A DNA stretch of 64,000 bases. Source: Oscillospiraceae bacterium. Lineage in GTDB: Bacteria > Bacillota > Clostridia > Oscillospirales > CAG-272. Position numbers and translations under genes: made by a program. Under the pieces are notes generated by a model. It saw only the letters and a list, made by a program, of their open reading frames with translations. It was not told the origin of the DNA and did not search any database. Below, piece after piece: positions 18,381 to 35,793 of the stretch. The stretch is taken from positions 14,198 through 78,197 of the forward strand of contig SVSS01000005.1 in NCBI GenBank assembly GCA_015064185.1. The letters run 5' to 3'. Within the stretch, counting starts at the first letter, position 1. Every line of letters starts with the position of its first letter.

Positions 18381-18701
18381 TGCGAACCTAATTCTGCGTC
18401 GCTTCGCGGGCACTAGGGTATTCGCGCGTTGCGCGAAGATACCCACCGCTTGCCGCTTACGAGCGAGCTCGACGCGCTCTGCGCGGGGGTATGCGAACCT
18501 AATTCTGCGTCGCTTCGCTATGCACTAGGGTATTCACGCTTCGCGTGAAGATTTTTGCTCGCGGCTCTCGTGAGCGAGCTCCCATCGCCTTGCTCGCAAA
18601 ATGCGAACCTAGCTCCACAACGCTTCGCGTTGCGTAGCAACCTTTCGAAGCGTTAGTGCCCCAGCCAACGCAAAAAGGACACCCGAAGGTGTCCTTTGCG
18701 T
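18381..18701 (-). repeat. tRNA-Gln(CTG)-linked repeat array: inverted tRNA 3' end plus about 110-bp units containing split T-arm halves
   Basis: TAGTGCCCCAGCCA inverted copy at 18654-18667; TGCGAACCTA at 18381, 18492 and 18602; GCACTAGGGTATTC at 18410 and 18522. Confidence 0.8.
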
Positions 18702-19273: not shown

Positions 19274-19350
19274 CTACCCATGGCACAGCTGGATAGCGCG
19301 TCAGACTCCGACTCTGAAGGTCCGCGGTTCGAATCCGCGTGGGTAGGCCA
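19274..19350 (+). tRNA. tRNA-Arg(CCG)
   Basis: Acceptor stem CTACCCA/TGGGTAG-G-CCA; anticodon arm TCAGA-CTCCGAC-TCTGA; GGTTCGAATCC. Promoter TTGAAA-17-TATAAT at 19216-19244. Confidence 0.97.
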
Positions 19351-19798
19351 AACAAAAAAGACCCCTCGTGGGTCTTTTTTGTTTGGTCCCTGCATCGGAT
19401 TTGAACCCCACCGCCGCAGGAACAATGGAATTAACACAGTACATATTGCGGTGGGGAAGAACGCCGTTCGCTTGGTGATGGCGGCACATGGCCGCCAAGG
19501 CGCTTCTTCCTACAAAATGCGAAGCGTTTTGTGAACGAATAGGCGGCAATGCCGACGTCCGCGTGGGTAGGCCAAACAAAAAAGACCCCTCGTGGGTCTT
19601 TTTTGTTTGGTCCCTGCATCGGATTTGAACCCCACCGCCGCAGGAACAATGGAATTAACACAGCACATATTGCGGTGGGGAAGAACGCCGTTCGCTTGGT
19701 GATGGCGGCACATGGCCGCCAAGGCGCTTCTTCCTACAAAATGCGAAGCGTTTTGTGAAGGAATAGGCGGCAATGCCGACGTCCGCGTGGGTAGGCCA
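19334..19798 (+). mobile_element. Two tandem 224-bp structured units, each ending in a 17-bp copy of the tRNA-Arg 3' end
   Basis: TCCGCGTGGGTAGGCCA at 19334, 19558 and 19782. The units differ at only 2 positions that I can see. Confidence 0.85.
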
Positions 19799-19956
19799 AA
19801 AAACGGCAAGCATTGGTTTGCCGTTTTTTCGTTCTTGCCGTTCTCTCCTTTTACTATTGAAAATTGAGCAAGTTGTTATTTTAACTTGCAAAAAATGTTA
19901 TAATATGTTATACTATATAAGCTTATGGTATTTGAACAAAACGACGGGAGTCTATT

Positions 19957-21312
19957 ATGGAACAAAAGAGAAGCTCATTTACGGGAAAGATTGGATTTGT
20001 TTTGGCGGCGGCAGGTTCTGCTGTGGGTCTTGGCAATATCTGGCGTTTTCCGTATCTTGCTGCTAAGTATGGCGGCGGTATTTTTTTGCTTGTGTATATT
20101 TTACTGTCGGTCACCTTTGGCTTTTCCTTGATGATCGCAGAGATCGCGATCGGTCGCAAGACCAAATTAAGCCCCATTGGCGCATTTCGTGCGCTTGACA
20201 AGCGTTTTTCCTTTGTTGGCGTGCTTGCTGCCGTGGTGCCCGCTATTATTTTGCCTTACTACTCGGTCATTGGCGGTTGGGTGATGAAATATATCGTCGG
20301 CTTTGTCGGGGGGCAGGGGTCTGCTATGGCAAATGACGCGTATTTTGGCAATTATATCGGTTCTGTTACAGAGCCGCTTGTGTGGTTTGCGACATTTATC
20401 GGTATTACCGCTTTGGTGGTGCTGCTGGGTGTTGACAAGGGCGTTGAGAAGGTAAGTAAGATCATGATGCCCGCACTCATTGTATTGGTGCTCTTTATTG
20501 CGATCTACAGTATGATAGCGGTTGACGGTGCTTGGGAGGGTGTGCTGTATTACATCAAGCCCGATTTTTCTAAATTCTCTATCATGACCGTTGTTGCCGC
20601 CATGGGTCAGCTCTTTTACTCGATGTCGCTTGCTATGGGTATTATGATCACCTTTGGCTCTTACATGAAAAAGGATATCAGCATCGAAAAGTCGGTGCAT
20701 CAAATTGAAATTTTTGATACGGGTGTGGCTTTTCTTGCAGGTCTTATGATCATTCCCGCCGTATTTGCGTTTGGTGGGGAAGCGGCTCTTGGACAAAGCG
20801 GTCCTAGCCTGATGTTTGTGACGCTCCCCAAAATCTTTGATACGATGCCGGGCGGCGCTGTGATTGGTGCGATCTTCTTTATCATGGTCTTTTTCGCCGC
20901 ACTCACCTCATCGATCTCCTTGATGGAAACCGTGGTATCGACGCTGCTTGACAAGGTTAAGATCAACCGCAAGCTGTGCAGCGGCTTGGTGCTTGTTTTT
21001 TGCTTGATCATCGGTTCGCTCTCCTCACTTGGTTACAGTGCTTGGAGCGAGTTTACGCTGATCGGCATGCAGATCCTTGATTTCTTTGATTTTATCAGCA
21101 ACAGCATTATTATGCCGATCGTGGCACTTGCAACCGCTATCTTTGTGGGCTTTTTCCTTAAGCCCCGCGCCGTGATCGAGGAGGTAGAGATTTCGGGCGA
21201 ATTTAAGCAGAAGAAGCTGTTTTCGGTGATGATCCGTTATATAGCACCGATTTGCATTCTTGCCATTCTGGTTTCCTCTGTGCTGAGCGCATTTGGCGTG
21301 ATTAAAATTTAA
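19957..21312 (+). CDS. Sodium-dependent transporter (SNF/NSS family)
   Basis: AAAGSAVGLGNIWRFPY, GGGIFLLVY, GQLFYSMSLAMG, AALTSSISLME. Confidence 0.93.
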   Translation: MEQKRSSFTGKIGFVLAAAGSAVGLGNIWRFPYLAAKYGGGIFLLVYILLSVTFGFSLMIAEIAIGRKTKLSPIGAFRALDKRFSFVGVLAAVVPAIILPYYSVIGGWVMKYIVGFVGGQGSAMANDAYFGNYIGSVTEPLVWFATFIGITALVVLLGVDKGVEKVSKIMMPALIVLVLFIAIYSMIAVDGAWEGVLYYIKPDFSKFSIMTVVAAMGQLFYSMSLAMGIMITFGSYMKKDISIEKSVHQIEIFDTGVAFLAGLMIIPAVFAFGGEAALGQSGPSLMFVTLPKIFDTMPGGAVIGAIFFIMVFFAALTSSISLMETVVSTLLDKVKINRKLCSGLVLVFCLIIGSLSSLGYSAWSEFTLIGMQILDFFDFISNSIIMPIVALATAIFVGFFLKPRAVIEEVEISGEFKQKKLFSVMIRYIAPICILAILVSSVLSAFGVIKI

Positions 21313-21351
21313 TGTAAAAATAAAAAAAGCCCGAAAGGGCTTTTTTTATTT

Positions 21352-22254
21352 TTACGCTTCGACCGTACTTGCCACGGCTTCCTTTTCTGCAAGGCAGGCA
21401 GAGTCAACGGATACCTCGTATTTGGTAACGCCAAGCACCGTTTCACCGTCGATCTGTAAAGCCACGGGTCTGTCAAACTCGACACAGATGTGCTTACCCT
21501 GATGCTCAGCCGCAAGGCTCTTGTGCTTGATGTGTCCGCCCTTCGATACCGAGGGGAATACAAGCAGCGTGTGAATTCTGCCCGCATGGAACATGACACC
21601 AACCGATACGTGATCGGCGCGGTCGCGGCGGTGCTGGTGGGGGGTGGGCATCAGTCCGCCACCGTAGTATCTGCCTACCATGGTGGGCGCGATCCATACC
21701 TTTTTATACTCATAGGTCTTGCCGTCTACCGTCACTTTCGCGTTGGTGGGCTTGTATTTGCCAAGCAGACCCTTAATGGCAATGGCGGAGTAGCTGACGG
21801 GCTTTTCTGAGGTTTTGCGCAGTTCGTCGCCAATTTCACAGCAGTAGCCGTCAAGGCCGTATCCGATGCCGTTGATAAAGCGATAGCTATTGCCGTTTAC
21901 CGTCACAATGGGCAGATTTTTGATCTCCTCGTTGATGCGCATGGGCGCTGAGCCGGAGTCCTTGCCGAAATCGCGCAAGAAATCGTTTCCGCTACCCGTG
22001 GCATAGTAAAGGATATCATTTTCAATACCGAGATCGTAGATCTCGTTGATAAAGCGATTGAGTGTACCGTCGCCGCCACATACGATGATCTTATCTTCGG
22101 GTGCAAGGTCATTTGCAAAATTGTGGTAATCTGTAATTGTGGTCATATCCACATATGTAAGCGGAGAAGTGTATTGTGATTGCAATTCCTCAGCCTTTTG
22201 CTTACCGGTGTTGTGACCTGCATGAGGATTGTATAAAATGTAGATTTTACTCAT
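21352..22254 (-). CDS. Diacylglycerol kinase family lipid kinase
   Basis: NPHAG, GGDGTLNRFIN, TGSGNDF, QIDGE. Confidence 0.9.
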   Translation of the reverse strand: MSKIYILYNPHAGHNTGKQKAEELQSQYTSPLTYVDMTTITDYHNFANDLAPEDKIIVCGGDGTLNRFINEIYDLGIENDILYYATGSGNDFLRDFGKDSGSAPMRINEEIKNLPIVTVNGNSYRFINGIGYGLDGYCCEIGDELRKTSEKPVSYSAIAIKGLLGKYKPTNAKVTVDGKTYEYKKVWIAPTMVGRYYGGGLMPTPHQHRRDRADHVSVGVMFHAGRIHTLLVFPSVSKGGHIKHKSLAAEHQGKHICVEFDRPVALQIDGETVLGVTKYEVSVDSACLAEKEAVASTVEA

Positions 22255-22510
22255 AATGCGATCTCCTTTTTGCAATATTACATCATCATTTTATCATAAA
22301 GAGGCTAGGTTTTCAACAAAGTTTGACACTTTTTTGTTAGACAATTTTCGGAATTTGTTCATTTTTTGGTGGCTTGTACCGCACTTTTTTGACGTATAAT
22401 GCCACTTGTTGCTTTATAAGGTCGAAATTTAAAATCAGTTTTGTGGGGTTTACAAAATGACTGCGTTTTGGTATAATTATTAATAATATGACAATGTAAG
22501 GGGAAAAGAT

Positions 22511-23911
22511 ATGTTTGACAAGATCATTGCGGCCGTTAACGATGCGCTGTATGGGTACATTTTGATCATCATTCTTGTTGCGGGCGGGCTTTATTTTACC
22601 GTTCGCACCAAGGGAGCGCAGTTCCGCTTGCTAGGCGCACAGCTGCATGCCGTCACAGAAAAGCCCAAGGACGGAAAGGGTGTTTCCTCCTTTCAGGCGT
22701 TGATGGTTTCCACTGCATCGCGTGTGGGTACGGGCAATATCATTGGTGTATCCACCGCACTTTGTCTTGGCGGCTTTGGCGCTATGTTTTGGATGTGGGT
22801 GATCGCAGCCATTGGCGGTGCTACGGCACTCATTGAAAGCACGCTTGCGCAGATCTATAAAAGACGTGGCCCTGACGGTGCTTACGGCGGACCTGCCTAC
22901 TATATAGAAAAGGGAATCGGTTCAAAGCCGCTTGCCATACTTTTTTCTGTGGTGCTGATCATCACGTACGGTATCGGCTTTAATATGCTTGCCTCGTACA
23001 ATCTGCAATCCACGTTCTCGGCGTATTCGTTTTACAACGCGCAGCAAACGCCTTGGATCATCGGTGCGGTATTGGCAGTGCTGGTTGGCTATTGCTTGCT
23101 TGGCGGCGGAAAGCGTATGATGAAGGCAACCGGTATTTTAGTGCCGATCATGGGCATTGCGTATATTTTGATTGCAGTTGTGATCGTGTGTATCAATATC
23201 AAGAGTATCCCCACCGTGTTTGCAGAGATCTTCACAAACGCATTTGATTTCAAGGCGATCTTTGGCGGCTTTAGCGGCTCTTGCGTGATGTACGGCATCA
23301 AGCGCGGGCTTTACAGCAACGAGGCGGGTGTTGGCTCAGCTCCGAATGCCTCTGCCTCTGCCGATGTGCAGCACCCCATAAAGCAAGGGCTTGTGCAGGT
23401 GCTTTCGGTATTCATTGATACCATTCTCGTGTGCTCAGCCACGGGCTTTATGTGCATGACCTCGGGCGTTGAGGCAACTGCAGAGCTTTCCGGCGCGCCG
23501 TACGTGCAGGCTGCACTCTCTGCTTCGCTCGGTACCTTTGGACCGATCTTTATTACAGTGGCAATGGTACTCTTTGCCTTTACCACGTTGCTTGGAAATC
23601 TTTACTATGTTGATCAATGTGTGTTTTATATTCTTGGCAAGGTTCCCTCCAAGAAGGTGCAGCATGCATATCACATTGCGGCAGCCTTGATCGTATTGCT
23701 TGGCGCAGGTCTCTCGGCAGATCTTTTGTGGAACATCTCGGATCTTACCATGGGCGTGATGACGCTTATCAATCTGCCCGTCATTGTGATCCTTGGTAAA
23801 TATGCCTTCCGCGCACTCAAGGACTATGAGAAGCAGCGCAAGGCAGGAGAGGATCCCGTATTCCATGCAGCCGATATTGATCTGCCGCATGAGGTGGATT
23901 ATTGGCAGTAA
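22511..23911 (+). CDS. Alanine/glycine:cation symporter (AGCS family)
   Basis: SSFQAL, RVGTGNI, GGPAYYI, GIKRGLYSNEAGVGS. Confidence 0.93.
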   Translation: MFDKIIAAVNDALYGYILIIILVAGGLYFTVRTKGAQFRLLGAQLHAVTEKPKDGKGVSSFQALMVSTASRVGTGNIIGVSTALCLGGFGAMFWMWVIAAIGGATALIESTLAQIYKRRGPDGAYGGPAYYIEKGIGSKPLAILFSVVLIITYGIGFNMLASYNLQSTFSAYSFYNAQQTPWIIGAVLAVLVGYCLLGGGKRMMKATGILVPIMGIAYILIAVVIVCINIKSIPTVFAEIFTNAFDFKAIFGGFSGSCVMYGIKRGLYSNEAGVGSAPNASASADVQHPIKQGLVQVLSVFIDTILVCSATGFMCMTSGVEATAELSGAPYVQAALSASLGTFGPIFITVAMVLFAFTTLLGNLYYVDQCVFYILGKVPSKKVQHAYHIAAALIVLLGAGLSADLLWNISDLTMGVMTLINLPVIVILGKYAFRALKDYEKQRKAGEDPVFHAADIDLPHEVDYWQ

Positions 23912-23968
23912 GTATTTATAAAAAAGGGAAGGCAAACGAAGTTCATTTGCCTTCCTTTTTGAGTTGAA

Positions 23969-24169
23969 GAGAGAGTGGGACGGCACGATGTGCCTATTCG
24001 TTTGGCAAATCCCTGTGGATTTGCCAGGAAAGAGCGCTCGTCGCCTGAACGGCTCCGTTTCCTTTGGAAAACCGCGCTCGTACCTCCCCACGCCGCGCAG
24101 GCGCGGCGCGAGTTTTTACCCACTCTCTCCGCCAAGCAAAAAAGCCCCCATTTCGGGGGCTTTTTTGCT
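23969..24169 (-). mobile_element. tRNA-Ser-linked structured unit (206-bp period)
   Basis: Inverted copy CCCACTCTCTCCGCCA at 24119-24134. Direct copy GAGAGAGTGGGA at 23969-23980 matches tRNA 24175-24186. Body homologous to the Arg unit. Confidence 0.8.
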
Positions 24170-24258
24170 TGGCGGAGAGAGTGGGATTCGAACCCACGGT
24201 CCCTTGCGGGATCACTAGTTTTCAAGACTAGCTCCTTAAACCGCTCGGACATCTCTCC
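24170..24258 (-). tRNA. tRNA-Ser(TGA)
   Basis: GGAGAGATGTCCGAGCGG...CTAGT-CTTGAAA-ACTAG, long variable arm, GGTTCGAATCCCACTCTCTCCGCCA. Confidence 0.97.
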
Positions 24259-24465
24259 ATATTCTGTTAACGCGTAACTAAAAGCAAGGTCAACCCTTTA
24301 AATATGCCTTCCAGCGCGACAACAAGGGTATTGTATCATATTTGGTAGCAGTTGTCAAGGTTTTGGCGGTGGTTTTTATCAGAATTGTAAAATGTGAATG
24401 CTTGGGAAAAATCCCCCCCGATTACACATTGTGCAATCGGGGGGATTTTATTGTTACACGTAGTA

Positions 24466-27400
24466 TTATGTGTTCTGCGAATAAAGCTCGCCCAAACGAA
24501 GCAGGTGCTCATAGCGTGCCTGCGCGGTTTCCTCAGCCTTGCTGAACAGTGTCTCTGCGCGCTCGGGGAAGGAGCGCGTGAGGGACGCATAGCGTGCCTC
24601 GTTCATGATGAAGTCACGGTAGCTAGCGGCAGGTGCCTTGCTGTCCATGGTGAAGGGATTCTTGCCCTCTGCCTTGGCGGCGGGGTTGAAGCGGAACAGG
24701 TTCCAATAGCCGCATTCCACAGCCTTCTTCATTTCAAGCTGGCAGTTCATCATGCCGCCCTTGATAGAGTGCATCTCGCAGGGAGAATAGCCAATGATGA
24801 GGGAGGGACCCGGGTATGCCTCTGCCTCAGCGATCGCCTTGATCGTCTGATTCATATCAGCACCCATAGCAATCTGTGCTACGTAGATATAGCCGTAGCT
24901 CATAGCGATCTCTGCCAGGCTCTTCTTGGCAATTGCCTTACCTGCAGCGGCAAACTGTGCTACCTGACCGATATTGGATGCCTTAGAAGCCTGACCGCCG
25001 GTGTTGGAGTATACTTCGGTGTCAAATACCATTACATTCACATCCTCACCGGATGCCAGCACGTGGTCAAGACCGCCAAAGCCAATATCGTAAGCCCAGC
25101 CGTCGCCGCCAAAGATCCATACCGACTTCTTGGAAAGGAATTCGCGGTTTGCAAGCACATCCTTGCATGCATCACAGTCGCAGTTCAGCGCCTCCAGCTC
25201 AGCCACCAAGGTCTTTACTGCGGCGGTGTTTGCCTCACCGTCATTTACGGTGTTCAGGTAAGCCTCACAAGCAGCCTTAACGGTGTCGGTGGATTTCTCG
25301 CAGTTAAGAATTTCCTTAACGTCCTCGATCAAGCGAGCGCGTACTGCCTTTTGACCCATATACATGCCAAAGCCGTGCTCTGCGTTGTCCTCAAACAGGG
25401 AGTTCGCCCATGCGGGGCCGTGCCCCTTGCTGTTTGTGGTGTAGGGAGAGGTTGCGGCAGGACCGCCCCAAATAGAGGAGCAACCGGTCGCATTGGAAAT
25501 ATACATGCGATCGCCAAACAGCTGGGTAATGAGGCGTGCATACGATGTTTCTGCACATCCTGCACAAGAGCCGGAGAACTCGAGCAGCGGCTTTTTGAAC
25601 TGGCTGCTGATCACAGTTTTGCCAACCGTTTCGGGCTTTTCGCTTACCTTGGCAACGCAGTAATCAAACGCCTCCTGCTGTGCAGCCTGGCTTTCCTGCG
25701 GTACCATCTTCAGGGACTTAGTGGGGCACACGCCAACACATACGCCACAGCCCATGCAGTCCAGGGGAGAAATGGCAAGCGTGAAGGTATAGTTGGTCTT
25801 AACAATAGGCTTGGGATGCTTTTTGAGTGCCTCGGGTGCTGCTGCCAGCTCCTCCTCGTTCATGGCGAAGGGACGGATGGTGGCGTGCGGGCAGACGAAG
25901 GAGCACTTGTTACATTTCGCACACGTGTCAGCATTCCATTCGGGAACCATGACGGCAACACCGCGCTTTTCGTAAGCCGATGCGCCCTGCTCAAAGGTGC
26001 CGTCTGCGTGGTCGATGAAGGCAGAAACAGGCAGGCTGTCACCGTCCATCTTTCCAACGGGCTTCATGATGCCCTCTACCATCTTTACCAGCTTTGCGGC
26101 GCCCTCGCCCTTAGAAGCCTGAACGGCATCCGTGGCATCAGCCCAATGGGCGGGCACATCGATCTTTACAAACGCGGTAGCGCCTGCGTCGATCGCCTTG
26201 TGGTTCATTTCCACAATGTCCATACCCTTCTTGGCGTAGGACTTGGTAGCGGCATCCTTCATGTACTGAATGGCATCCTCTTGGGGCATGACCTTTGCCA
26301 GCGTAAAGAATGCGGATTGCAAAATGGTATTGGTACGCTTGCCCATGCCAATTTGCATAGCCAGATCAATGGCGTTAATGGTATAAACTTGAATGTTGTT
26401 ATTTGCGATATAGCGCTTTGCCTCAGCGGGCATGTGCTTGTCAAGCTCCTCGGCAGTCCATTGGCAGTTGATCATAAAGATACCACCGGGCTTTACGTCG
26501 TTGACCATTTTGTAGCCCTTCAGTACGTAAGAGGGGTTGTGGCAAGCAACGAAATCAGCCTTGTTGATGTAATAAGGGCTCTTGATGGGCTTGTCGCCAA
26601 AACGAAGATGGCTGATGGTGATACCGCCGGTCTTCTTCGAGTCGTACTGGAAGTATGCTTGTACGTATTTATCGGTATGGTCGCCGATGATCTTGATGGA
26701 GTTCTTGTTTGCGCCAACGGTACCGTCGCCGCCAAGACCCCAGAACTTGCACTCGATTGTACCCTCTGCTGCGGTGTTGGGCGCTACCGTTTCAGGCAGT
26801 GACAGGCAGGTCACGTCGTCTACGATGCCGATGGTAAAGCGGTGCTTGGGCGCATCCTTTGCCAGCTCGTCAAATACAGCAAACACGCTGGAGGGAGGGG
26901 TATCCTTAGAGCCAAGACCGTAACGGCCGCCGATCACGCGGATATCGCCGCGTCCCTGCGTTGCAAGGGCGGTGACCACATCCATATAAAGAGGCTCGCC
27001 GAGAGCGCCGGGCTCCTTGGTGCGGTCAAGCACAGCAAGCTTTTTAACGGTGGCAGGGATCGCTGCAGCCAATTTGTCTGCGCAGAAGGGACGGTACAGG
27101 CGGCATTTTACAAGGCCGACCTTTTCGCCCTTTGCGGTGAGGTAGTCAATGACCTCCTCTGCTACGTCACAAATAGAGCCCATAGCAACGATCACGCGCT
27201 CTGCGTCGGGCGCGCCGTAGTAGTTGAAGATCTGATAATCGGTACCAAGCTTTTCGTTGACCTTTTGCATATAGCCTTCCACGATAGCGGGAACAGCATC
27301 GTAATATGTATTGCATGCCTCACGGTGCTGGAAGAAGATATCGCCGTTCTCGTGCGAGCCGCGCATCACAGGGCGCTCGGGGTTAAGCGCGCGCTTACGG

Positions 27401-28008
27401 AATGCCTCAACGGCATCCATGTCGCACATTTCCTTAAGATCTGCATAATCCCAAACCTGGATCTTTTGCAGCTCGTGAGAGGTGCGGAAGCCATCAAAGA
27501 AGTTGATAAACGGAACGCGACCCTTGATCGCAGCCAAATGTGCTACGGCACTCAGATCCATAACCTCTTGGGGATTGGTTTCTGCCAGCATTGCAAAGCC
27601 GGTTTGACGGCACGCATATACGTCGGAGTGATCACCGAAGATGTTGAGAGCGTGCGATGCTACGCAGCGAGCCGACACGTGAAATACGCAGGGCAGCAAT
27701 TCGCCTGCGATCTTATACATGTTGGGGATCATCAGCAACAGACCCTGCGAAGCAGTGTATGTGGTCGTTAACGCACCTGCGTTCAGCGAGCCGTGTACGG
27801 TGCCGGCAGCGCCTGCTTCGGATTCCATCTCAGACACCTTAACAGTGGTGCCGAAAATGTTTTTTTGTCCTGCAGCTGAGCACTGATCGACGTAATCCGC
27901 CATGGGGCTGGACGGAGTGATAGGATAGATGCTTGCAACCTCGGTAAACGCATAGGATACATGCGCTGCCGCAGTGTTGCCGTCCATGGTTTTAAACTTT
28001 CTTTTCAT
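24466..28008 (-). CDS. nifJ: Pyruvate:ferredoxin (flavodoxin) oxidoreductase, single-chain
   Basis: MDGNTAAA, YPITPSS, TASQGLLLMIPN, two CxxCxxCxxxCP clusters, GACAGC-like GSCAGC, GGDGWAYDIG. Confidence 0.97.
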   Translation of the reverse strand: MKRKFKTMDGNTAAAHVSYAFTEVASIYPITPSSPMADYVDQCSAAGQKNIFGTTVKVSEMESEAGAAGTVHGSLNAGALTTTYTASQGLLLMIPNMYKIAGELLPCVFHVSARCVASHALNIFGDHSDVYACRQTGFAMLAETNPQEVMDLSAVAHLAAIKGRVPFINFFDGFRTSHELQKIQVWDYADLKEMCDMDAVEAFRKRALNPERPVMRGSHENGDIFFQHREACNTYYDAVPAIVEGYMQKVNEKLGTDYQIFNYYGAPDAERVIVAMGSICDVAEEVIDYLTAKGEKVGLVKCRLYRPFCADKLAAAIPATVKKLAVLDRTKEPGALGEPLYMDVVTALATQGRGDIRVIGGRYGLGSKDTPPSSVFAVFDELAKDAPKHRFTIGIVDDVTCLSLPETVAPNTAAEGTIECKFWGLGGDGTVGANKNSIKIIGDHTDKYVQAYFQYDSKKTGGITISHLRFGDKPIKSPYYINKADFVACHNPSYVLKGYKMVNDVKPGGIFMINCQWTAEELDKHMPAEAKRYIANNNIQVYTINAIDLAMQIGMGKRTNTILQSAFFTLAKVMPQEDAIQYMKDAATKSYAKKGMDIVEMNHKAIDAGATAFVKIDVPAHWADATDAVQASKGEGAAKLVKMVEGIMKPVGKMDGDSLPVSAFIDHADGTFEQGASAYEKRGVAVMVPEWNADTCAKCNKCSFVCPHATIRPFAMNEEELAAAPEALKKHPKPIVKTNYTFTLAISPLDCMGCGVCVGVCPTKSLKMVPQESQAAQQEAFDYCVAKVSEKPETVGKTVISSQFKKPLLEFSGSCAGCAETSYARLITQLFGDRMYISNATGCSSIWGGPAATSPYTTNSKGHGPAWANSLFEDNAEHGFGMYMGQKAVRARLIEDVKEILNCEKSTDTVKAACEAYLNTVNDGEANTAAVKTLVAELEALNCDCDACKDVLANREFLSKKSVWIFGGDGWAYDIGFGGLDHVLASGEDVNVMVFDTEVYSNTGGQASKASNIGQVAQFAAAGKAIAKKSLAEIAMSYGYIYVAQIAMGADMNQTIKAIAEAEAYPGPSLIIGYSPCEMHSIKGGMMNCQLEMKKAVECGYWNLFRFNPAAKAEGKNPFTMDSKAPAASYRDFIMNEARYASLTRSFPERAETLFSKAEETAQARYEHLLRLGELYSQNT

Positions 28009-28306
28009 GGATATCTCCTCCTTTAAAAGGTTGAAAAATATTGATTTTGTGCAAATGGAATATAGATATCATAGTCCAAATGCACTACATAATTATAATA
28101 ACACAAATATATAGCTTTGTAAAGTGGGAACAATGTATTTTACTGATTTTACAGATAAAAATACGTAAAATTACAAAATGACTATAAAATGAGAAAAAAT
28201 TACAAATAACTCTTGCTTTTTTAAAAAAGTTGTGATACAATAGTAAGGCTATGTATGTTTGCGCCCTGTTTGGCGCTTGATTTTGAATATTTTCGGAGGT
28301 TTGAAA

Positions 28307-28561
28307 ATGAATCCTATTGAACTCGTTCTGGGTATTGTGTTGATGGTTCTTGCACTGTTTTTGATCGTTGCTGTTTTGATGCAACAGGACAAGGACAAAA
28401 AGCTTTCCGGTACGATTACCGGTGGCGCTGATACTTACTACGGTAAGGGCAAGGGCAAAAGCAGAGATAAGATTCTTGTGCGTGCTACAACGGTAGCAGC
28501 TATTCTCTTTGCTATTTTGGTAGTTGCAATGTACGTGATCGTTTCTATGATCAGCGGCTAA
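28307..28561 (+). CDS. secG: Preprotein translocase subunit SecG
   Basis: 84 aa; two TMs flanking LMQQ...LSGTITGGADTYYGKGK. Confidence 0.9.
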   Translation: MNPIELVLGIVLMVLALFLIVAVLMQQDKDKKLSGTITGGADTYYGKGKGKSRDKILVRATTVAAILFAILVVAMYVIVSMISG

Positions 28562-28667
28562 AATCAATATAAGCGGCGGCGGGGTGACCTGCCGCCGCTT
28601 ATATTTTGTAAAAAATCTGCATGATTAAAAAAACTCGCAAGCAGCGCTTGCGAGTTTTTTTGTGCAT

Positions 28668-30086
28668 TTATGATTTGCTTGACAGATACTCGTCAATTGC
28701 TGTGGCAGCGGTCTTGCCTGCGCCCATGGCGAGAATAACGGTGGCAGCGCCCGTTACGGCATCACCGCCCGCATATACGCCCTCAAGGCTGGTCTTGCCC
28801 GTTGCCTCGTTAACTACAATACCGCCCCAACGGTTGATCTCAAGTCCGCTTGTGGTATCCTTAATGAGAGGGTTGGGGGAGGTGCCGATCGACATGACAA
28901 CGGTATCTACGTCAAGCAGGTACTCGCTGCCGGGGATCTCTACAGGACGGCGGCGTCCTTTTTCGTCGGGCTCGCCAAGCTCCATTTTGATGCAGCGCAT
29001 GCCTGTAACAAATCCGTTTTTCGGATCGCGTCTGTCCGCCTCGTTGCGGTAGCCAACGATCTCAACGGGATTGTTCAGCAGCAGGAATTCAATGCCTTCC
29101 TCCATGGCGTGCTCAACCTCCTCGCGGCGTGCGGGGAGCTCCTCCATGGAACGGCGGTATACGATGTAGACCTTTTCTGCGCCAAGACGCAGTGCGGTGC
29201 GCGCGGCATCCATTGCAACGTTACCGCCGCCGACAACGGCAACCTTGCCGCCCTTCATTACGGGTGTTTCGCCGTCATCCATGTAAGCCTTCATCAGATT
29301 TACACGAGTCAGATATTCGTTTGCGGAATACACACCCTTCAGATTTTCGCCGGGGATGTTCATAAAGCGGGGAAGTCCCGCGCCCGAGCCGATAAAGACG
29401 GCCTCGTAGCCTTCTTCCATCAGCTCCTCGACCGATACGGTCTTGCCGATCACCACGTTGGTGGCGATCTCAACGCCAAGCGCCTTTAAGCCCTCGATCT
29501 CGTTGGCAACGATCGCCTTGGGCAAACGGAATTCGGGAATGCCGTAAACCAAAACGCCGCCCGCGATGTGGAACGCCTCAAAAATCGTAACGGCGTAGCC
29601 TTTTTTAGCAAGGTCGCCTGCACAGGTAAGGCCGGAGGGACCGGAGCCTACCACCGCTACGCGATGGCCGTTCTGGGTAGGCTTTACGATCTCCTTATCC
29701 TTTTTGGCATTATGATAGTCCGCAACAAAGCGTTCCACACGGCCAATGCCGACAGGCTCGCCCTTAATGCCGCGCACGCACTTGCCCTCACACTGATTTT
29801 CCTGCGGGCATACGCGTCCGCAAACTGCGGGCAGGGAGCTTTGGAGCGAAATGGTTTCATAAGCGCCCTCAAAATCTCCCGTTGCAGCCTTGGTAAGAAA
29901 AGCGGGAATGTTGATCGAAACGGGGCAACCCGTTACGCAAAGCGGCTTTTTGCAGTTAAGGCATCTTGCAGCCTCATCCATTGCTTGCTCGGCAGTATAG
30001 CCAAGCGCCACCTCTTCAAAATTGTGCGCACGAACCTTAGGGTCCTGCGTGGGCATCTCATTTTTCTTTAACGACATGTTTGGCAT
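28668..30086 (-). CDS. nfnB: NfnB / GltD-like NADP-dependent flavoprotein subunit of electron-bifurcating transhydrogenase
   Basis: RCLNCKKPLCVTGCP, CGRVCPQENQCE, GSGPSGL, GGGNVAMD. Paired with an nfnA-like gene; no gltB in the window. Confidence 0.85.
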   Translation of the reverse strand: MPNMSLKKNEMPTQDPKVRAHNFEEVALGYTAEQAMDEAARCLNCKKPLCVTGCPVSINIPAFLTKAATGDFEGAYETISLQSSLPAVCGRVCPQENQCEGKCVRGIKGEPVGIGRVERFVADYHNAKKDKEIVKPTQNGHRVAVVGSGPSGLTCAGDLAKKGYAVTIFEAFHIAGGVLVYGIPEFRLPKAIVANEIEGLKALGVEIATNVVIGKTVSVEELMEEGYEAVFIGSGAGLPRFMNIPGENLKGVYSANEYLTRVNLMKAYMDDGETPVMKGGKVAVVGGGNVAMDAARTALRLGAEKVYIVYRRSMEELPARREEVEHAMEEGIEFLLLNNPVEIVGYRNEADRRDPKNGFVTGMRCIKMELGEPDEKGRRRPVEIPGSEYLLDVDTVVMSIGTSPNPLIKDTTSGLEINRWGGIVVNEATGKTSLEGVYAGGDAVTGAATVILAMGAGKTAATAIDEYLSSKS

Positions 30087-30929
30087 TTATTTGTCCTCCC
30101 CCCGGAAAAGATTGCAGGCATCCTCATGACGGTGACGCTCGAATGCGTGATACATCGATGAACGCTCGATTGCCTCGTCAAAGTCGATCTCATGCGCGTC
30201 AAATTCGGGACCGTCAACACAAGCAAACTTGGTTTTGCCGCCTACGCTGAGGCGGCAGCCGCCGCACATGCCCGTGCCGTCGATCATGACGGGGTTCATG
30301 CTGGCAACGGTCTTAATACCGTATTGCTTGGTAAGAAGGCTGACAAACTTCATCATAACAAGAGGGCCGATCGTGATGACCTCATCGTATTGCTCACCGC
30401 TGTCGATCAGTTTTTTGAGGGCATCGGTTACAAGACCCTTTTCGCCTGTCGAACCGTCATCGCTCATCAGCACAAAGCGCGAGCTGTTCTCGCGGAACTC
30501 ATCCTCAAGAATAACAAGATCCTTTGTTCTGAAGCCAACAATAGCGTGTACCTCGGCGCCTGCCTCGTGCAGAGCCTTGGCAACGGGGTATGCAATGGCA
30601 GAGCCAACGCCACCGCCAACAACAGCAACCTTTTTCAGTCCCTCGATCTCGGTGGCACGGCCAAGCGGGCCCACAAAGTCGGCGATGTAACCGCCTTCTT
30701 CTACGTGGTTCAGCTTTTCGGTAGTGCCGCCAACGACCTGAAAGATAATGCTTACGGTGCCGGTTTCTTTATTGCTGTCAGCAATAGTAAGAGGAATACG
30801 CTCTCCTTTTTCATCGACGCGCAGGATGATGAATTGCCCGGGCCTTGCCTTTTTGGCAACAAGGGGCGCCTCGATCTCAAGCAGCGTAACAGTGGGATTG
30901 AGTGACTTTCTCTTTACGATACGATACAT
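30087..30929 (-). CDS. nfnA: NfnA / sulfide-dehydrogenase beta-like FAD/2Fe-2S subunit
   Basis: GERIPLTIAD, GPLG, DGTGMCGGCR, CVDGPEF. Confidence 0.88.
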   Translation of the reverse strand: MYRIVKRKSLNPTVTLLEIEAPLVAKKARPGQFIILRVDEKGERIPLTIADSNKETGTVSIIFQVVGGTTEKLNHVEEGGYIADFVGPLGRATEIEGLKKVAVVGGGVGSAIAYPVAKALHEAGAEVHAIVGFRTKDLVILEDEFRENSSRFVLMSDDGSTGEKGLVTDALKKLIDSGEQYDEVITIGPLVMMKFVSLLTKQYGIKTVASMNPVMIDGTGMCGGCRLSVGGKTKFACVDGPEFDAHEIDFDEAIERSSMYHAFERHRHEDACNLFRGEDK

Positions 30930-31003
30930 AACGCTCTCCTTTTCACAACAGAGAATTTTTGTGTATGCCGAAACTTATACGAGAAAAAATTATGCTTTAA
31001 AAA

Positions 31004-32371
31004 TTAGCAAACACCGAATGCAAGCATTGCGCGTGCAACCTTAAGGAAGCCTGCGATATTTGCACCTGCTACAAGGTCATCGCCAAGGTCGTACTCGTGT
31101 GCGGCATCAATGGAAGCCTTGAAGATGTTGTGCATGATCATGTGGAGCTTCTCATCAACCTCTTCAGCAGTCCAGCTGTAGCGCATGGAGTTCTGGGACA
31201 TTTCAAGACCGGAAACAGAAACACCGCCCGCATTTACTGCCTTGGAGGGAGCAACGATAACGCCGTTTGCCTTGAGGTAAGCAATTGCCTCGTTGGTGGT
31301 GGGCATGTTGGCAACCTCAACGTAGTACTTCAGGCCGTTTGCAACCATCTTCTCAGCCTCAGCCATGCCAACCTCGTTCTGGGTAGCACAGGGCATCATG
31401 ATGTCTGCCTTAACGCCCCAGGGCTTTTCTTTGGGGAAGAACGCTACGCCAAACTTGTCTGCGTAATCCTCAACGCGGTTGCGGCAGGAAGCGCGCATCT
31501 CAAGCATAAAGTCGATCTTTTCGTCGGTGGATACACCGTCGGGATCGTAAATGTAGCCGTCGGGACCGGAGATGGTGAGAACCTTACCGCCAAGCTCGTT
31601 GATCTTCTTGACAGCGCCCCAAGCAACGTTGCCGAAGCCCGAGATAGCAAAGGTCTTGCCCTTGATATCGTCGCCGAAGTAGTTGAGCATATCTACTGCG
31701 TAGTAAACCGCACCGAAGCCGGTTGCTTCAGGACGCAGGATAGAGCCGCCGTAGGGCATGCCCTTGCCGGTAAGCACGCCGGTGAACTCGTCACGCAGAC
31801 GCTTGTACTGACCGAAGAGGTAGCCGATCTCACGTGCACCAACGCCGATGTCGCCTGCGGGCACGTCGGTGTTTGCGCCGATGTATTTTTGAAGCTCAGT
31901 CATAAAGCTCTGGCAGAAGCGCATAACCTCTGCGTCGGACTTGCCCTGCGGGTCAAAGTCAGAGCCGCCCTTACCGCCGCCCATGGGCAGGGAGGTGAGG
32001 GAATTCTTAAAGGTCTGCTCGAAGCCAAGGAACTTCATGATGCTCTCGTTTACAGTTGGGTGGAAGCGCAGACCGCCCTTGTAGGGACCGATCGCACTGT
32101 TGAACTGTACGCGGTAGCCGCGGTTTACGCGGGTAACGCCCTGATCGTCAACCCACGGAACACGGAATTTGATCACACGCTCGGGCTCTACGATAAGGTC
32201 GATGATGCCTTTTTCGATAAATTCTGGGCTCTTTGCCAAAACGGGCTCAAGAGACTCCAGCACTTCGCTTACAGTCTGGTGGAATTCAACCTCACCGGGG
32301 TTGCGCTTCTTTACCTGCTCTACAACGCCTTCGATGTAGGCCTTTACTTCGGCACGGGTCATGTTTGCCAT
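31004..32371 (-). CDS. gdhA: NAD(P)-specific glutamate dehydrogenase
   Basis: GPYKGGLRFHP, GGGKGGSDF, DVPAGDIGVG, RPEATG, NAGGVSVSGLEM. Confidence 0.96.
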   Translation of the reverse strand: MANMTRAEVKAYIEGVVEQVKKRNPGEVEFHQTVSEVLESLEPVLAKSPEFIEKGIIDLIVEPERVIKFRVPWVDDQGVTRVNRGYRVQFNSAIGPYKGGLRFHPTVNESIMKFLGFEQTFKNSLTSLPMGGGKGGSDFDPQGKSDAEVMRFCQSFMTELQKYIGANTDVPAGDIGVGAREIGYLFGQYKRLRDEFTGVLTGKGMPYGGSILRPEATGFGAVYYAVDMLNYFGDDIKGKTFAISGFGNVAWGAVKKINELGGKVLTISGPDGYIYDPDGVSTDEKIDFMLEMRASCRNRVEDYADKFGVAFFPKEKPWGVKADIMMPCATQNEVGMAEAEKMVANGLKYYVEVANMPTTNEAIAYLKANGVIVAPSKAVNAGGVSVSGLEMSQNSMRYSWTAEEVDEKLHMIMHNIFKASIDAAHEYDLGDDLVAGANIAGFLKVARAMLAFGVC

Positions 32372-32617
32372 TGATTTTTTCCTCCAAAATTAAGAAAATA
32401 TGAAATTTCTTGTCGAAAACAAGATATCATTGCTATTTTATCATAGATAAAATTACTTTGTCAAGTGGTAGACGCAAGATGAAGGGAGAAAACTTGCAAA
32501 ATATGCTATGCGGCACAGGGCACAATCTTGCTTTTTTGCCGCAATTTAAATAGAGCGTTATAATACGGTCGCGCGGCACATAGGATATAGCGGTAAAAAA
32601 GCATGGAGGGTGCGATA

Positions 32618-33931
32618 ATGAAATTTTTAAATTTGAGCAAAAAAAGAAGAGTGTTGGCGTTTTCGCTTTGCGGTGTGCTTTGCGCAGGCGCATTGGTCGG
32701 TGCATGGGCACTGTGGGGGAAACGGGAGCCCGAAAGCCTTGTGGTAAGTGCGGGACTGCAGCATTTTGCGGATGATGCGTATCTTGCAGCCTCTGCGGTA
32801 TCGGGGCAGCCCGTAACCTTTACGGCCGAGTGGTTTGACGGCACGCTTGGTGGCGGCACGGTGGAGCGCGTGACGATCACGACGCTCCCCCCTGTTACCG
32901 AGGGGGTGCTTAAGCTTGGCTACGGTGAGGTGTCGGTAGGGCAGAGCATTCCGCGCGAAACGCTGTCTTATTTGTGCTTTACCCCCAATGACGGGGTGAA
33001 AAGCAGCAGCTTTTCCTTTGTGCCGGAGAGTGTGGACGGTGCCGCGGGCTATGCGCTAACCTGCCATATGACGGTAACCGATACCGTGAATTGCTGTCCC
33101 GGCGGCACGAAAAGCGCCACGGCGGTTTCCACGCACGAAACGCTCGCGCTTTCGGGTGTGCTGACGGCAAAGGACCCCGAGGGGGATGCCTTGACCTTTG
33201 AAATTTGTGATTACCCCAAAAACGGTACAATTACACTCGATAGTGCCACAGGCGCGTTTACCTATACACCGCAGGACGGTTATTACGGTAGCGATGCGTT
33301 TACCTGGCGCGTGCAGGATCAAAACGGTGCGTTTGCACCCGAGGCGGTGGTAAACATTACGGTGCGTGAGCTTGTAACGGATCACACCTTTACCGATATG
33401 CAAGGCAACGCCAATCACACGCACGCTTTGCGTGTGAGTGAAAAAGGGCTGCTTGGCGGAGAGGAGATCGGCGGAAAGCATTATTTTCATCCGCATAAAG
33501 CACTTACCCGTGCTGCGTTTGTGACGATACTGCTTGATGCCGCTGAAATAAAAGTACCCGAAGCCACCGCCACGGGATATGCAGATGATGCGGATATCCC
33601 CGCACCCATGAAGGGTGCGATCAAATATGCAAAAGACCAAGGTTGGCTTGGCGAAGCGGAGAATTTCCGCCCAAACGATGCCATTACCCGCGCTGAGGCT
33701 GCCGAGATCGCGGCAAAGGTTTTGTCGCTCTCAGCACCCGGATACCATGAAACGGTACAGGATTTTGATGCCATTCCCGTTGATATGGCGGATGCGTTGT
33801 ACGCCATTTATGAGGGCGGATATATCAGCACCATGGCAGACGGAACACTCTCACCTATGGGAGAACTGACGCGGGGCGATGCTGCAAAATTCTTTGCTAA
33901 GATCCTTGACGGCAAAAATACGGATGAATGA
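32618..33931 (+). CDS. Membrane-anchored protein with cadherin/Ig-like (Big_9) domain and C-terminal SLH domains
   Basis: DPEGDALTF..PKNGTI..GAFTYTPQDGYYGSDAFT; SLH motifs FHPHKALTRAAF, FRPNDAITRAEAA, ELTRGDAA. Confidence 0.85.
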   Translation: MKFLNLSKKRRVLAFSLCGVLCAGALVGAWALWGKREPESLVVSAGLQHFADDAYLAASAVSGQPVTFTAEWFDGTLGGGTVERVTITTLPPVTEGVLKLGYGEVSVGQSIPRETLSYLCFTPNDGVKSSSFSFVPESVDGAAGYALTCHMTVTDTVNCCPGGTKSATAVSTHETLALSGVLTAKDPEGDALTFEICDYPKNGTITLDSATGAFTYTPQDGYYGSDAFTWRVQDQNGAFAPEAVVNITVRELVTDHTFTDMQGNANHTHALRVSEKGLLGGEEIGGKHYFHPHKALTRAAFVTILLDAAEIKVPEATATGYADDADIPAPMKGAIKYAKDQGWLGEAENFRPNDAITRAEAAEIAAKVLSLSAPGYHETVQDFDAIPVDMADALYAIYEGGYISTMADGTLSPMGELTRGDAAKFFAKILDGKNTDE

Positions 33932-34076
33932 TCACAAAAGGAGCCGATGCGGAAGCAAAGGCTCCTTTTCTTTGACATAAAAGATCAAAATACAAATATT
34001 CTAAAATATCTATTGCTTTTTTGGTGTGTTTGCGCTATAATCAAAGGCAGTTGTTTTTTAAGGAGTATTTAGACAG

Positions 34077-34796
34077 ATGAGAGAAACAATTGATATGACA
34101 AGAAAAGAACTGGCGGTTTTCTTCCTTATGGCGGTGCTGTCGGGCTTTATGATCGGCATTGGCGGCACGGCATCGTTACTTGCAAACAGTCTGCTTGGCA
34201 ATTGGGGGCGTCTGATCGGCGCGATCCTTTTTTCGCTTGGTATTTATGCTATCGTAACCTATGGCATGAAGCTGTTTACGGGTATGGTAGCAGATATTCC
34301 CAAAATGGGTATGAAGAGCATGTGGCGCTTGCCTCTTTGCTTTTTCGGCAATATCATCGGCGTGGCGATCGTTGCGGTGCTGGTGTATAACTCTCCCCTT
34401 GCCACGCCCGTGGTGGCAAAGGGCAGTGCAACCGTTGCGGCAAAGCTGGCGCAGGAGAGCTGGGCATTAAAATCCTTTTGCTCCGCAATCCTTTGCGGCT
34501 GGCTCATTACCCTTTCTGTTTGGGCATCGAAATATGCACCCAAGAAGAATTTAAGCGCTTCTATTGAGGTCATTTTCCCTGTGGTCGTGTTCGCGTTTTG
34601 CGGCTTTGATCACTCGGTTGCCAATATGCTGTATTTCTATTTCTTAGGTGAGGTTTCCTGGCGCGTTGTTGGGTATATCGTGATGAGTGTGCTTGGCAAC
34701 ATCGTGGGCGGTGTGCTGCTGCCGCTTGTCATCCTTCTTAAGGAAAGAGCAAAAGTGGAGCGCCTTGCTATGGCAGAAAAGGATAACGTAGCGTAA
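34077..34796 (+). CDS. Formate/nitrite transporter family protein
   Basis: LFTG, GNIIG, ILCGWL, GFDHSVANM, GNIVGG. Confidence 0.9.
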   Translation: MRETIDMTRKELAVFFLMAVLSGFMIGIGGTASLLANSLLGNWGRLIGAILFSLGIYAIVTYGMKLFTGMVADIPKMGMKSMWRLPLCFFGNIIGVAIVAVLVYNSPLATPVVAKGSATVAAKLAQESWALKSFCSAILCGWLITLSVWASKYAPKKNLSASIEVIFPVVVFAFCGFDHSVANMLYFYFLGEVSWRVVGYIVMSVLGNIVGGVLLPLVILLKERAKVERLAMAEKDNVA

Positions 34797-34870
34797 ACAG
34801 TAGCATAAAGAGAAGCCCCCCGTGCGGCATTTGCCGCACGGGGGGCTTTGTCTTTGCAAGAATGCACTTC

Positions 34871-35410
34871 TTAGCCTTTGTTATGCATCCAATAATTGTA
34901 CTTTTTCTTGCGGTAGATCAAGAGAAAAATAATGTACACAAGGCAATCACTCACGGCACTTAACAGGTAACCCACAAAAGGGATCTTGATGAAATTAGCG
35001 AACAAGCACATCGGAGCAAAGAAGAAGGCGGGAAACGAAACAATGGTTTTCTTTTCAAACACCAAACGATCAAATGTGTTCAGTACAAAACAGATCAAAA
35101 CGATCGCAGCAACACAAATAAGCGCCTTAGCTTCACGTTTTATTATCAGCTTGAGATCATCTACAAGTGAAGTGTATTTTTTGTCCTTATAATCGGACAT
35201 CACCTCATCTTCACCAACGGATTTTCTGATTTTTGATGTGTACAGTAGGAAAAAACCAAAAGCAACTGTTGTCATGAATGCAATCAAAAACAATTTTAAT
35301 GTGGGATTTTCAAGTTCGCTTAAAATTGCTCCCCATATGGCATATAGCGCTATGTATGCTACTAATGTAATGACCGATGCAAGCGTGATATTCCATAACG
35401 TTCGTTTCAT
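34871..35410 (-). CDS. Hypothetical membrane protein (AT-rich gene)
   Basis: 179-aa ORF with 4-5 TM segments and RBS GGAGG. Confidence 0.7.
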   Translation of the reverse strand: MKRTLWNITLASVITLVAYIALYAIWGAILSELENPTLKLFLIAFMTTVAFGFFLLYTSKIRKSVGEDEVMSDYKDKKYTSLVDDLKLIIKREAKALICVAAIVLICFVLNTFDRLVFEKKTIVSFPAFFFAPMCLFANFIKIPFVGYLLSAVSDCLVYIIFLLIYRKKKYNYWMHNKG

Positions 35411-35503
35411 AAAAGCCTCCCCAAGTTTACTTAGTATTATTATACCATAAATTAGGTAACTGTAAAGGAGATTTGATTGAACTGTTGGTTGAATGAATTG
35501 TCT

Positions 35504-35718
35504 TGGCAGGATTCGCCCCGCTTTCTGCGGCGTTGCCGCAGACGCTTAAAGAATGCCTTGATGCCTAAACGGCATCATTTCGCAGGGCGAAAATCGGCAT
35601 TCTTTCCCGCCGCACCATAGCTTGTTTGATTTTTGCAACATGCGTGGCGGCGGAGATTCGGATCCGCGCCATCCCAGCCGACAATCAAAAAAGCCACCCG
35701 AATGGGTGGCTTGATTGT
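35504..35718 (-). mobile_element. tRNA-Gln(TTG)-linked structured unit (224-bp period)
   Basis: Inverted copy TTCGGATCCGCGCCATCCCAGCC at 35657-35679. Direct copy TGGCAGGATTCG at 35504-35515 equals tRNA 35728-35739. Body homologous to the Arg unit. Confidence 0.8.
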
Positions 35719-35793
35719 TGGCTGGGATGGCAGGATTCGAACCTACGAATACCAGAGTCAAAGTCTGGTGCCTTACCGCTTGGCGACATCCCA
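35719..35793 (-). tRNA. tRNA-Gln(TTG)
   Basis: TGGGATGTCGCCAAGCGGTAAGGCACCAGACTTTGACTCTGGTATTCGTAGGTTCGAATCCTGCCATCCCAGCCA. Confidence 0.97.

Follow-up and report, generated by a model that had tools for sequence, protein, structure and literature searches.

A genus-wide family of folded intergenic repeats at tRNA 3' ends in uncultured gut Clostridia

A 64,000-nt stretch of an Oscillospiraceae genome (contig SVSS01000005.1 of assembly GCA_015064185.1, positions 14,198-78,197 of the forward strand; hereafter the window) carries, directly behind its tRNA-Arg(CCG), tRNA-Ser(TGA) and tRNA-Gln(TTG) genes, non-coding units of about 190-225 nt, each made up of 4-6 different hairpins. A preliminary description had noted that these units are homologous with compensatory substitutions, and had taken the conservation of fold over sequence as a sign of selection on a single-stranded structure. 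The observation is confirmed here and its interpretation partly supported. The units belong to a structured intergenic repeat family with an unusual, unexplained tie to tRNA 3' ends, for which no published description was found. They share one anatomy, are present in many copies, are restricted to a genus, are amplified in tandem, differ in number between relatives, form mosaics, are in places linked to cargo genes, and have no linked recombinase. On balance, they are probably lineage-specific, non-autonomous, non-coding DNA repeats of a miniature integrative kind, or akin to miniature inverted-repeat transposable elements (MITEs) or repetitive extragenic palindromes (REPs), situated in the 3' flank of whichever tRNA gene is last in its operon.

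Read in the sense of the tRNA, the parts of every unit follow in the same order. Immediately 3' of the CCA lies T, a strong bidirectional G+C-rich terminator hairpin between an A-run and a T-run. It is followed by IR-L, an inverted and partly decayed copy of the tRNA segment from the T-arm to the CCA; by a hairpin, P1; by a three-way junction in which P2 encloses P2a and P2b; by P3 (and P4 in the Arg and Ser units); and by IR-R, which repeats the tRNA 3' end in direct orientation. The length of IR-R is 11-19 nt at Arg, Leu, His and Val and 12 nt at Ser, Gln and Gly; that of the Gln(TTG) unit copies 12 nt of the tRNA T-loop/stem. The tRNAs in front of units are intact (56-66 bits). Four tRNA genes, each with a near-consensus promoter, lie in the window, and their units are placed as follows.

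19274..19350 (+), tRNA-Arg(CCG), which bears an array; its own near-consensus promoter is at 19216-19244.
19351..19574 (+), Arg unit 1, 224 nt, recognised by its single-sequence fold and a covariance model match at 19449-19509.
19351-19454 (+), left half of Arg unit 1: T 19351-19383, IR-L 19384-19400, P1 19411-19454.
19455-19574 (+), right half of Arg unit 1: P2/P2a/P2b junction 19455-19510, P3 19511-19533, P4 19544-19554, IR-R 19557-19574.
19575..19798 (+), Arg unit 2, 224 nt, a tandem copy of unit 1, 99% identical to it.
19799..19833 (+), terminator hairpin at the end of the Arg array, read from the sequence and unlike the T of the units; probably the original terminator of tRNA-Arg.
24170..24258 (-), tRNA-Ser(TGA), with a promoter-like site at 24358-24330.
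23967..24169 (-), Ser unit, recognised by its fold and a covariance model match, with orthologues in the relatives G048, G018 and G021.
24169-24087 (-), left half of the Ser unit: T 24169-24135, IR-L 24130-24119, P1 24112-24087.
24085-23968 (-), right half of the Ser unit: three-way junction 24085-24026, P3 24025-24004, P4 23994-23982, IR-R 23979-23968.
35719..35793 (-), tRNA-Gln(TTG), with a promoter-like site at 35842-35814.
35504..35718 (-), Gln(TTG) unit, recognised by its fold and a covariance model match.
35718-35606 (-), left half of the Gln(TTG) unit: T 35718-35681, IR-L about 35679-35659, P1 35654-35606.
35605-35504 (-), right half of the Gln(TTG) unit: three-way junction 35605-35548, P3 35545-35520, IR-R about 35519-35504.
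18407..18701 (-), units of body family C behind tRNA-Gln(CTG) (18702-18777), limits approximate.

In single-sequence folds, the pairing of IR-L with IR-R closes the whole body. With the tRNA taken into account, IR-L is instead the far arm of a long palindrome centred on T. At the Ser locus, the tRNA 3' end, T and IR-L make up one palindrome with perfect 31-bp arms, and behind a tRNA-Ala elsewhere in the genome the corresponding arms are perfect over 34 bp.

The stems quoted in the preliminary description for the Arg, Ser and Gln(TTG) units were all found in place in the sequence. The succession of TTCCT, a hairpin, AACGAATAGGC and a second hairpin that had been said to be common to Arg and Ser is likewise present, and recurs in two relatives, in G021 at the Ser locus and in G018 at the Arg locus. 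Compared with 200 dinucleotide shuffles each, the folding energies of the single Arg, Ser and Gln(TTG) units gave z-scores of -4.3, -9.2 and -6.3, with 1, 0 and 0 of the 200 shuffles, respectively, folding as well as the native sequence. The consensus of the three bodies without their terminators (MAFFT and RNAalifold) reached -31.3 kcal/mol. When 200 dinucleotide shuffles were re-aligned by the same pipeline they reached -6.4 +/- 3.3 kcal/mol (z = -7.6), and none was as good as the native consensus, so the structural alignment passes its shuffled-sequence control.

A covariance model built on the 64-nt junction core yielded 67 matches, 62 of them distinct, from 51 sources. Among the 62 distinct copies, 94.0% of cells are standard pairs, and two-sided changes occur in 19 of 21 pairs (178 cells); the long-range P2 stem covaries across 45 nt. 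None of 500 shuffles did as well, and sliding the partners as a control left 39-47% paired. Because the alignment was fitted to its own model, which makes it lean towards the structure, and because the copies are related, these figures overstate independence; the contrast to the slid controls is still large. The homology and the compensatory changes claimed for the three units hold. At gathering score, a search of Rfam with the window and four further loci returned tRNA and RNase P only, the latter being a bacterial RNase P RNA of class A at 55187-55544 (-) of the window (250 bits). Relaxing the limit to E-values of 1-10 added nothing credible for the units: what came up were chance matches resembling terminators or hairpins, with scores far under the gathering threshold. 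No Rfam family matches the units. The motif that had been observed is real; it is not a set of three members, however, but a genus-wide, multi-copy repeat family.

In the 1.53-Mb genome to which the window belongs (G000), the core model has 22 matches at E<=0.001 and 23 at E<=1. Arrays abutting tRNA 3' ends hold 13 of the 22, at Leu-CAG (two), His, Gly-GCC (three, at two loci), Val-CAC (two), Arg-CCG (two), Ser-TGA, Gln-TTG and Leu-CAA. The others comprise one match after cargo genes 1.7 kb behind tRNA-Met, three in an island of alternating genes and units on contig C15, two inverted ones near tRNA-Gly-CCC, two nearly identical ones behind different protein genes on contig C11, and one at a contig end. 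The body with this core, family A, which has a conserved GTTYA loop in its junction, serves at least ten different tRNAs. Three further body families, B, C and D, have hairpins unrelated to those of A, yet the same layout of T, IR-L, hairpins and IR-R. When the 900 nt behind each of 41 tRNAs were scanned for the 14-nt tRNA 3' tail, a direct copy was found at 10, an inverted copy at 3, and both at 1; the match at Gly-TCC is part of the neighbouring His array.

Some copies stand next to protein genes. The two near-identical units on C11 (G000, C11:26560-26930 and C11:85960-86330), in which the repeated sequence is the 3' arm of a terminator hairpin, have 19-bp inverted ends instead of a tRNA end. 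Behind tRNA-Met the order is the tRNA, 1.6 kb of low-GC cargo, and a unit ending in the tRNA-Met 3' end. This cargo (G000:C14:138472-140090), which lies between the tRNA and the Met-type unit, encodes two proteins, a four-helix-bundle one that belongs to the 23S rRNA intervening-sequence family and one of 235 aa with no family assignment. Runs of a CTTCAC-like repeat follow the tRNA-Met terminator, and the same repeats occur in the C15 island. That island (G000:C15:1100-7800), also behind tRNA-Met, encodes NERD nuclease-domain, zinc-ribbon and small membrane proteins, and a family-A unit stands after each cargo protein gene. Cargo-linked units have a common motif, GCATCTA..., immediately before the terminator. 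Two tandem repeats in the window, at 16136-16458 (18 nt, 17.9 copies) and 51424-51693 (42/84 nt), are unrelated to the units.

Outside the own genome, the family is confined almost entirely to the genus. Family-A matches were found in 32 of 40 genus genomes (own included), at 2-24 per genome, and in 3 of 151 genomes sampled across the order (own included). Of the other two order-sample matches, one, in G153, is weak, and the other is a 95% identical copy at a contig edge in G036, a genome placed in another family; this piece of an Arg unit (G036:C40:1-167) may represent a horizontal transfer or a mis-binned contig. A DNA pattern scan of 185,579 species, with one genome each, returned 29 stretches, all in metagenome-assembled genomes of uncultured Clostridia, Oscillospiraceae, Eubacteriales or Lachnospiraceae, from the guts of goat, roe deer, sheep, water deer and other hosts. 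The motif pattern had no match in 2.9 million viral contigs, and a BLAST search of phage and plasmid records with the Gln unit gave nothing relevant. Among the 30 best loci in relatives, a tRNA gene was present in 21 and, where the sequence was read, lay directly upstream in the same orientation. A literature search for such units found no description, supplementary tables of catalogues being outside its scope and capable of listing the motif; PMC8040213 mentions palindromic candidates in general terms.

Relatives differ in the number and make-up of their units. At the Arg locus, two units in the own genome correspond to one in the closest relative, G048 (flanks 88-96% identical), to none of family A in G008, and to a variant without IR-L and IR-R in G018. 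Arrays are often heterogeneous, with differing terminators and bodies behind one tRNA, and some copies are deletion variants that have lost P2a/P2b or the entire junction. On C15, two units are 93% identical over P1 and P2 and have unrelated ends, and another pair shares T and IR-L and differs in body. At the two Gly-GCC loci (on contigs C5 and C12), P1 is replaced as a whole, in the same position, by an unrelated perfect palindrome. The Leu(CAA)-type units read in seven species all end with an identical one-base insertion relative to the tRNA; IR-R is thus passed on with the element instead of being duplicated afresh from the target. The Ser unit is retained in G048, G018 and G021, with stems that have diverged and pairing that is kept. 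A synteny search for empty sites upstream of the transporter gene found the gene order kept in the closest relatives only. In two loci of G048 (L174, G048:C5, after tRNA-Arg, and L060, G048:C40, in front of the transporter gene), a foreign segment is apparently situated inside the loop of the terminator hairpin after the single Arg unit; it begins with a helix-turn-helix gene and has CTTG at both joints, which are on different contigs. After the last unit of two other loci (L061, G008:C53 1-540, and L025, in G049), there are further arrays of short perfect hairpins with AT-rich spacers, which represent a different hairpin-repeat family of the same genus. The genus-wide multiplicity of the units, their tandem arrays, their mosaics and the cargo-linked copies together indicate the behaviour of repeated or mobile DNA, not that of an RNA locus with a single function.

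Conserved pairing nonetheless raises the question of the level at which it is kept. A unit could be a functional structured RNA. Transcription from the very strong tRNA promoter would then run through the terminator, the transcript would be cut back to its CCA-like end, and its IR-L would base-pair with the tRNA or a tRNA precursor, for instance in a sponging, sensing or 3'-processing role. The near-consensus promoter at each tRNA and the covariation of the three-way junction, long-range P2 stem included, would fit such an RNA, as would an IR-L that can pair with 11-16 nt at the 3' end of the tRNA, CCA included, and keeps this complementarity while IR-R decays, and a Ser unit that is retained orthologously. 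However, a strong terminator separates promoter and unit at each window locus and another stands behind, and no promoter-like site was found on either strand inside the units of the three window loci. Copy number is variable, variants without the inner hairpins and mosaics exist, the range is a single genus, and 8 of its 40 genomes have no units.

The hairpins themselves also point away from RNA. P3 is a perfect or near-perfect palindrome: among 66 P3 hairpins, 58 have at least 6 contiguous pairs and 49 a 3-nt loop, mostly closed by C-G. Whole hairpins are swapped for other perfect palindromes, and two tandem copies are distinguished solely by a loop that is AAA in one copy and TTT in its neighbour. 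Folding is more favourable for the tRNA-sense than for the antisense strand, by 4.06 kcal/mol and in 47 of 64 units, but dinucleotide shuffles give an equal difference (4.25 kcal/mol; base composition 52% G+T), so this advantage reflects composition and not structure, and strand asymmetry does not count as evidence for RNA. The only sign of a strand preference is an excess of G-U/U-G cells (48) over A-C/C-A cells (27) in the core alignment, a weak one given that copies are related and some cells misaligned. Thus, of the earlier proposal of single-strand selection, the conservation of pairing stands, while the perfect palindromes, the hairpin swaps, the AAA/TTT loop and a strand bias explained by composition leave other readings open. 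Given the palindromes, the swaps, the lack of a strand bias, and the layout of promoters and terminators, origin or maintenance of the pairing at the DNA level is at least as likely as at the RNA level, and we consider a functional RNA unlikely as the explanation of the family.

Some of the same features would be expected if the units had neither function nor mobility and arose through replication errors at terminator palindromes, with fold-back and template-switch synthesis lengthening quasi-palindromes and correcting them into IR-L and the perfect hairpins, and unequal crossing-over making the arrays. The single long palindrome of tRNA end, T and IR-L at Ser and Ala, the wholesale exchange of hairpins between Gly C5 and Gly C12, the AAA/TTT loop, and a strand asymmetry that is nil beyond composition all agree with such an origin. 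It does not account for a homologous branched core of 64 nt, with conserved loop and junction, behind at least ten tRNAs and behind protein genes, nor for the covariation of P2 across 45 nt. A core recurring at so many loci implies copying between loci and not local errors, and this explanation appears the least probable of those considered.

A different origin would make the units relics or minimal derivatives of elements that integrate into tRNA genes by a tyrosine integrase, i.e., remnants some 220 bp long that keep only attP or can be mobilised in cis. The tRNA 3' end would be their core, and the palindromes would be double-stranded sites for the integrase or accessory proteins of visiting phages or integrative elements. 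Each unit does lie between direct repeats of the tRNA 3' end with the tRNA intact; the right-hand copy extends back into the T-arm, as do the identity blocks of att sites; heterogeneous arrays suggest repeated integration at one tRNA; and cargo-bearing versions are known. The length of lambda attP, moreover, is close to that of a unit. An integrase, however, is what the units lack. No tyrosine recombinase was found in 68 unit context loci (293 kb), and neither the motif in the viral contigs nor a unit in the phage and plasmid records searched had a match. That one body family serves at least ten tRNAs is unlike a sequence-specific integrase, and covariation of a branched fold is unexpected for sites bound by proteins as double strands. 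Such an origin is, in our judgement, improbable.

The genome, which is 95% complete, encodes only two tyrosine recombinases, both of which score best against Xer models; integron integrase models give them 50-77 bits against cut-offs of 265-435. One is an Xer-like gene that almost all genomes of the genus have; since these include genomes that lack units, it was rejected as mobiliser. The second, of 308 aa, lies beside a tRNA-Val that has no array behind it; it too was rejected, as its occurrence is sporadic (12 of 40 genomes) and its gene in many cases interrupted. A cluster of three or four genes for large serine recombinases lies at G000:C11:3060-11144, probably on a mobile element, and no units were found beside it. 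The own genome gave no match to a reverse transcriptase, TnpB, IS110 transposase or Cas1, and on that ground the units are not, in this genome, read as a retro-element, omega-RNA, bridge-RNA or casposon.

There is, in addition, a Y1 HUH gene resembling the REP-associated tyrosine transposases (RAYTs), which encodes 182 aa at G000:C10:12269-12814 (-), about 1.4 kb before the window start. Its product reaches 64.3 bits on NF047646, below the cut-off of 80, and 23.9 bits on PF01797, where the cut-off is 23. The gene overlaps its neighbours, a radical-SAM gene and der, in an apparent operon, and hence has no intergenic flanks. Across the genus, its homologues are diverse, occur in multiple copies and in many cases contain interrupting stop codons. 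Such a homologue was found in 25 of the 32 genomes that carry units and in 1 of the 8 that do not (all 40, own included), a loose association that is uncorrected for relatedness. The surroundings of 11 RAYT-like loci in relatives, out to about 1.5 kb, contain no family-A unit.

Several known systems resemble the units in part, and none of REP/REPIN elements, tRNA-integrating elements, integrons and IS200/IS605 derivatives has its full set of defining features in them. In their manner of working they appear most similar to REP/REPIN or miniature integrative elements, and in architecture closest to the folded sites of integron attC and CTX attP. A REP is an imperfect palindrome of 20-40 nt with a conserved flanking tag, occurring singly or, as a REPIN, in an inverted doublet; genomes with such repeats have a RAYT gene, which the repeats typically flank. 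Like these, the units are high-copy, extragenic, hairpin-forming, non-autonomous, lineage-restricted and largely vertical, and there is one RAYT-like gene, in a housekeeping setting, that co-occurs loosely with them in the genus. Unlike them, the units are 190-225 nt long with several different hairpins and a branched core, vary in hairpin sequence, and are placed at tRNA 3' ends of which they carry copies; no conserved tag such as GTAG was seen on reading the unit alignments, the RAYT-like protein falls short of the NF047646 cut-off, and no family-A unit was seen to flank the RAYT-like loci covered in relatives.

With tRNA-integrating islands and remnants such as cis-mobilisable elements (CIMEs), the units share a tRNA 3' end directly repeated at both junctions, a tRNA that the element restores, a build-up of tandem copies at a single tRNA, and cargo in some copies. 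They differ in being gene-less, with no integrase in or adjacent to them, in a total size equal to that of an att site, in an extra inverted copy of the target, and in the use of many tRNAs by one family. An integron has its integrase beside an attI site, followed by an array of gene cassettes that each end in attC, and CTX-type phages integrate as folded single strands. As in these systems, the fold is kept while the sequence drifts, inverted repeats enclose a middle that varies and is in some cases branched, arrays extend from a single fixed site, and genes alternate with units on C15. No integron integrase was found in the genome, most units are gene-less, and the target is a tRNA end in place of attI or dif; no attI-like site and no conserved core sites were identified, attC core sites being without a formal test. 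The palindrome-associated transposable elements (PATEs) of the IS200/IS605 family also have subterminal hairpins at both ends, a fixed orientation to the target and a Y1 HUH gene in the genome; as in these, the left flank and right end of a unit finish alike (...CCA), with no short target duplication. No TnpA/TnpB partner element was found, though, the only Y1 protein being the RAYT-like one without IS ends; unit and target are identical over 11-19 nt and not 4-5, and an internal inverted target copy is foreign to that family. Compared with a classical MITE, which has terminal inverted repeats and a target duplication of 2-10 bp, the units have in IR-L and IR-R inverted repeats of a sort, yet ones derived from the target, and their flanking repeat of 11-19 nt is inherited with the element; the C11 copies have 19-bp inverted ends.

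If the units are repeats of this miniature kind, their T would replace the tRNA's own terminator, and a unit would enter beside the CCA by an occasional site-specific event that relies on the 11-19 nt shared by unit and tRNA 3' end, which would be why the tRNA stays intact. Units would be harmless, supplying a terminator of their own and leaving or restoring the tRNA end. Multiplication would take place mainly by tandem duplication and recombination between units, as suggested by the 99% identical tandem pair, the two-to-one difference to G048 and the mosaics. Pairing may be kept in single-stranded DNA, or made by replication errors that correct palindromes, or both. By pairing with the tRNA end or with IR-R, IR-L might present the target sequence as a duplex in a single-stranded form; with three copies of the tRNA end at hand (target, inverted and direct), the target could conceivably be recognised by pairing or through a folded-strand duplex. 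The enzyme would act in trans, and the RAYT-like Y1 HUH protein is a weak candidate for it.

Several results weigh against this account of miniature DNA repeats. It does not explain how one body family comes to have matched IR-L and IR-R for at least ten tRNAs, and the hairpins of the units are too divergent for the recognition site of one protein. With the NCBIfam model, RAYT-like matches appear in 25 of 32 unit-bearing and 3 of 8 unit-less genomes, and seven unit-bearing genomes are without one, including G019, which has 17 units, and G051, which is 99% complete. In the surroundings of RAYT, Xer-like and serine recombinase genes (16 loci), the unit model had no match, and the 68 unit context loci contained a single recombinase-like match, which is serine-recombinase-like (L037). 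Insertion or excision was not caught in any case; contigs from four metagenome DNA runs over 18400-36200 break at the tRNAs and units and include no joint from which a unit is missing, an outcome that favours neither side. Finally, units at the Ser locus persist in four species in which the flanking gene is just 74-77% identical (G018, G021), which looks like long vertical retention and could point to a host function.

A more far-reaching reading would make the units guide-bearing single-stranded DNA elements. Pairing of IR-L with the tRNA 3' end, or with the unit's own right end, would direct insertion after the CCA. The host would supply the enzyme in trans: a domesticated HUH (RAYT-like) nuclease, or an Xer-type recombinase that works on a folded strand as in CTX phage or attC. 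We regard this as a distinctly doubtful possibility. Were it true, the units would constitute a nucleic-acid-programmed, integron-like system at tRNA genes, able to capture small gene cassettes such as those at tRNA-Met and in the C15 arrays, and a new mode of target choice for mobile DNA.

The family bears on how such DNA is read. If the units are indeed miniature DNA repeats, compensatory substitutions in hairpin-rich intergenic DNA need not signify RNA. The units would also explain why assemblies of this genus break at tRNA genes; several contigs of relatives start or end inside units. On the same reading, an uncultured genus of gut Clostridia would harbour a copy-rich family of elements that insert at tRNA 3' ends and leave the tRNA unharmed. 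The units would then offer a clean system for the spread of gene-less repeats and for the re-aiming of one scaffold at many tRNAs.

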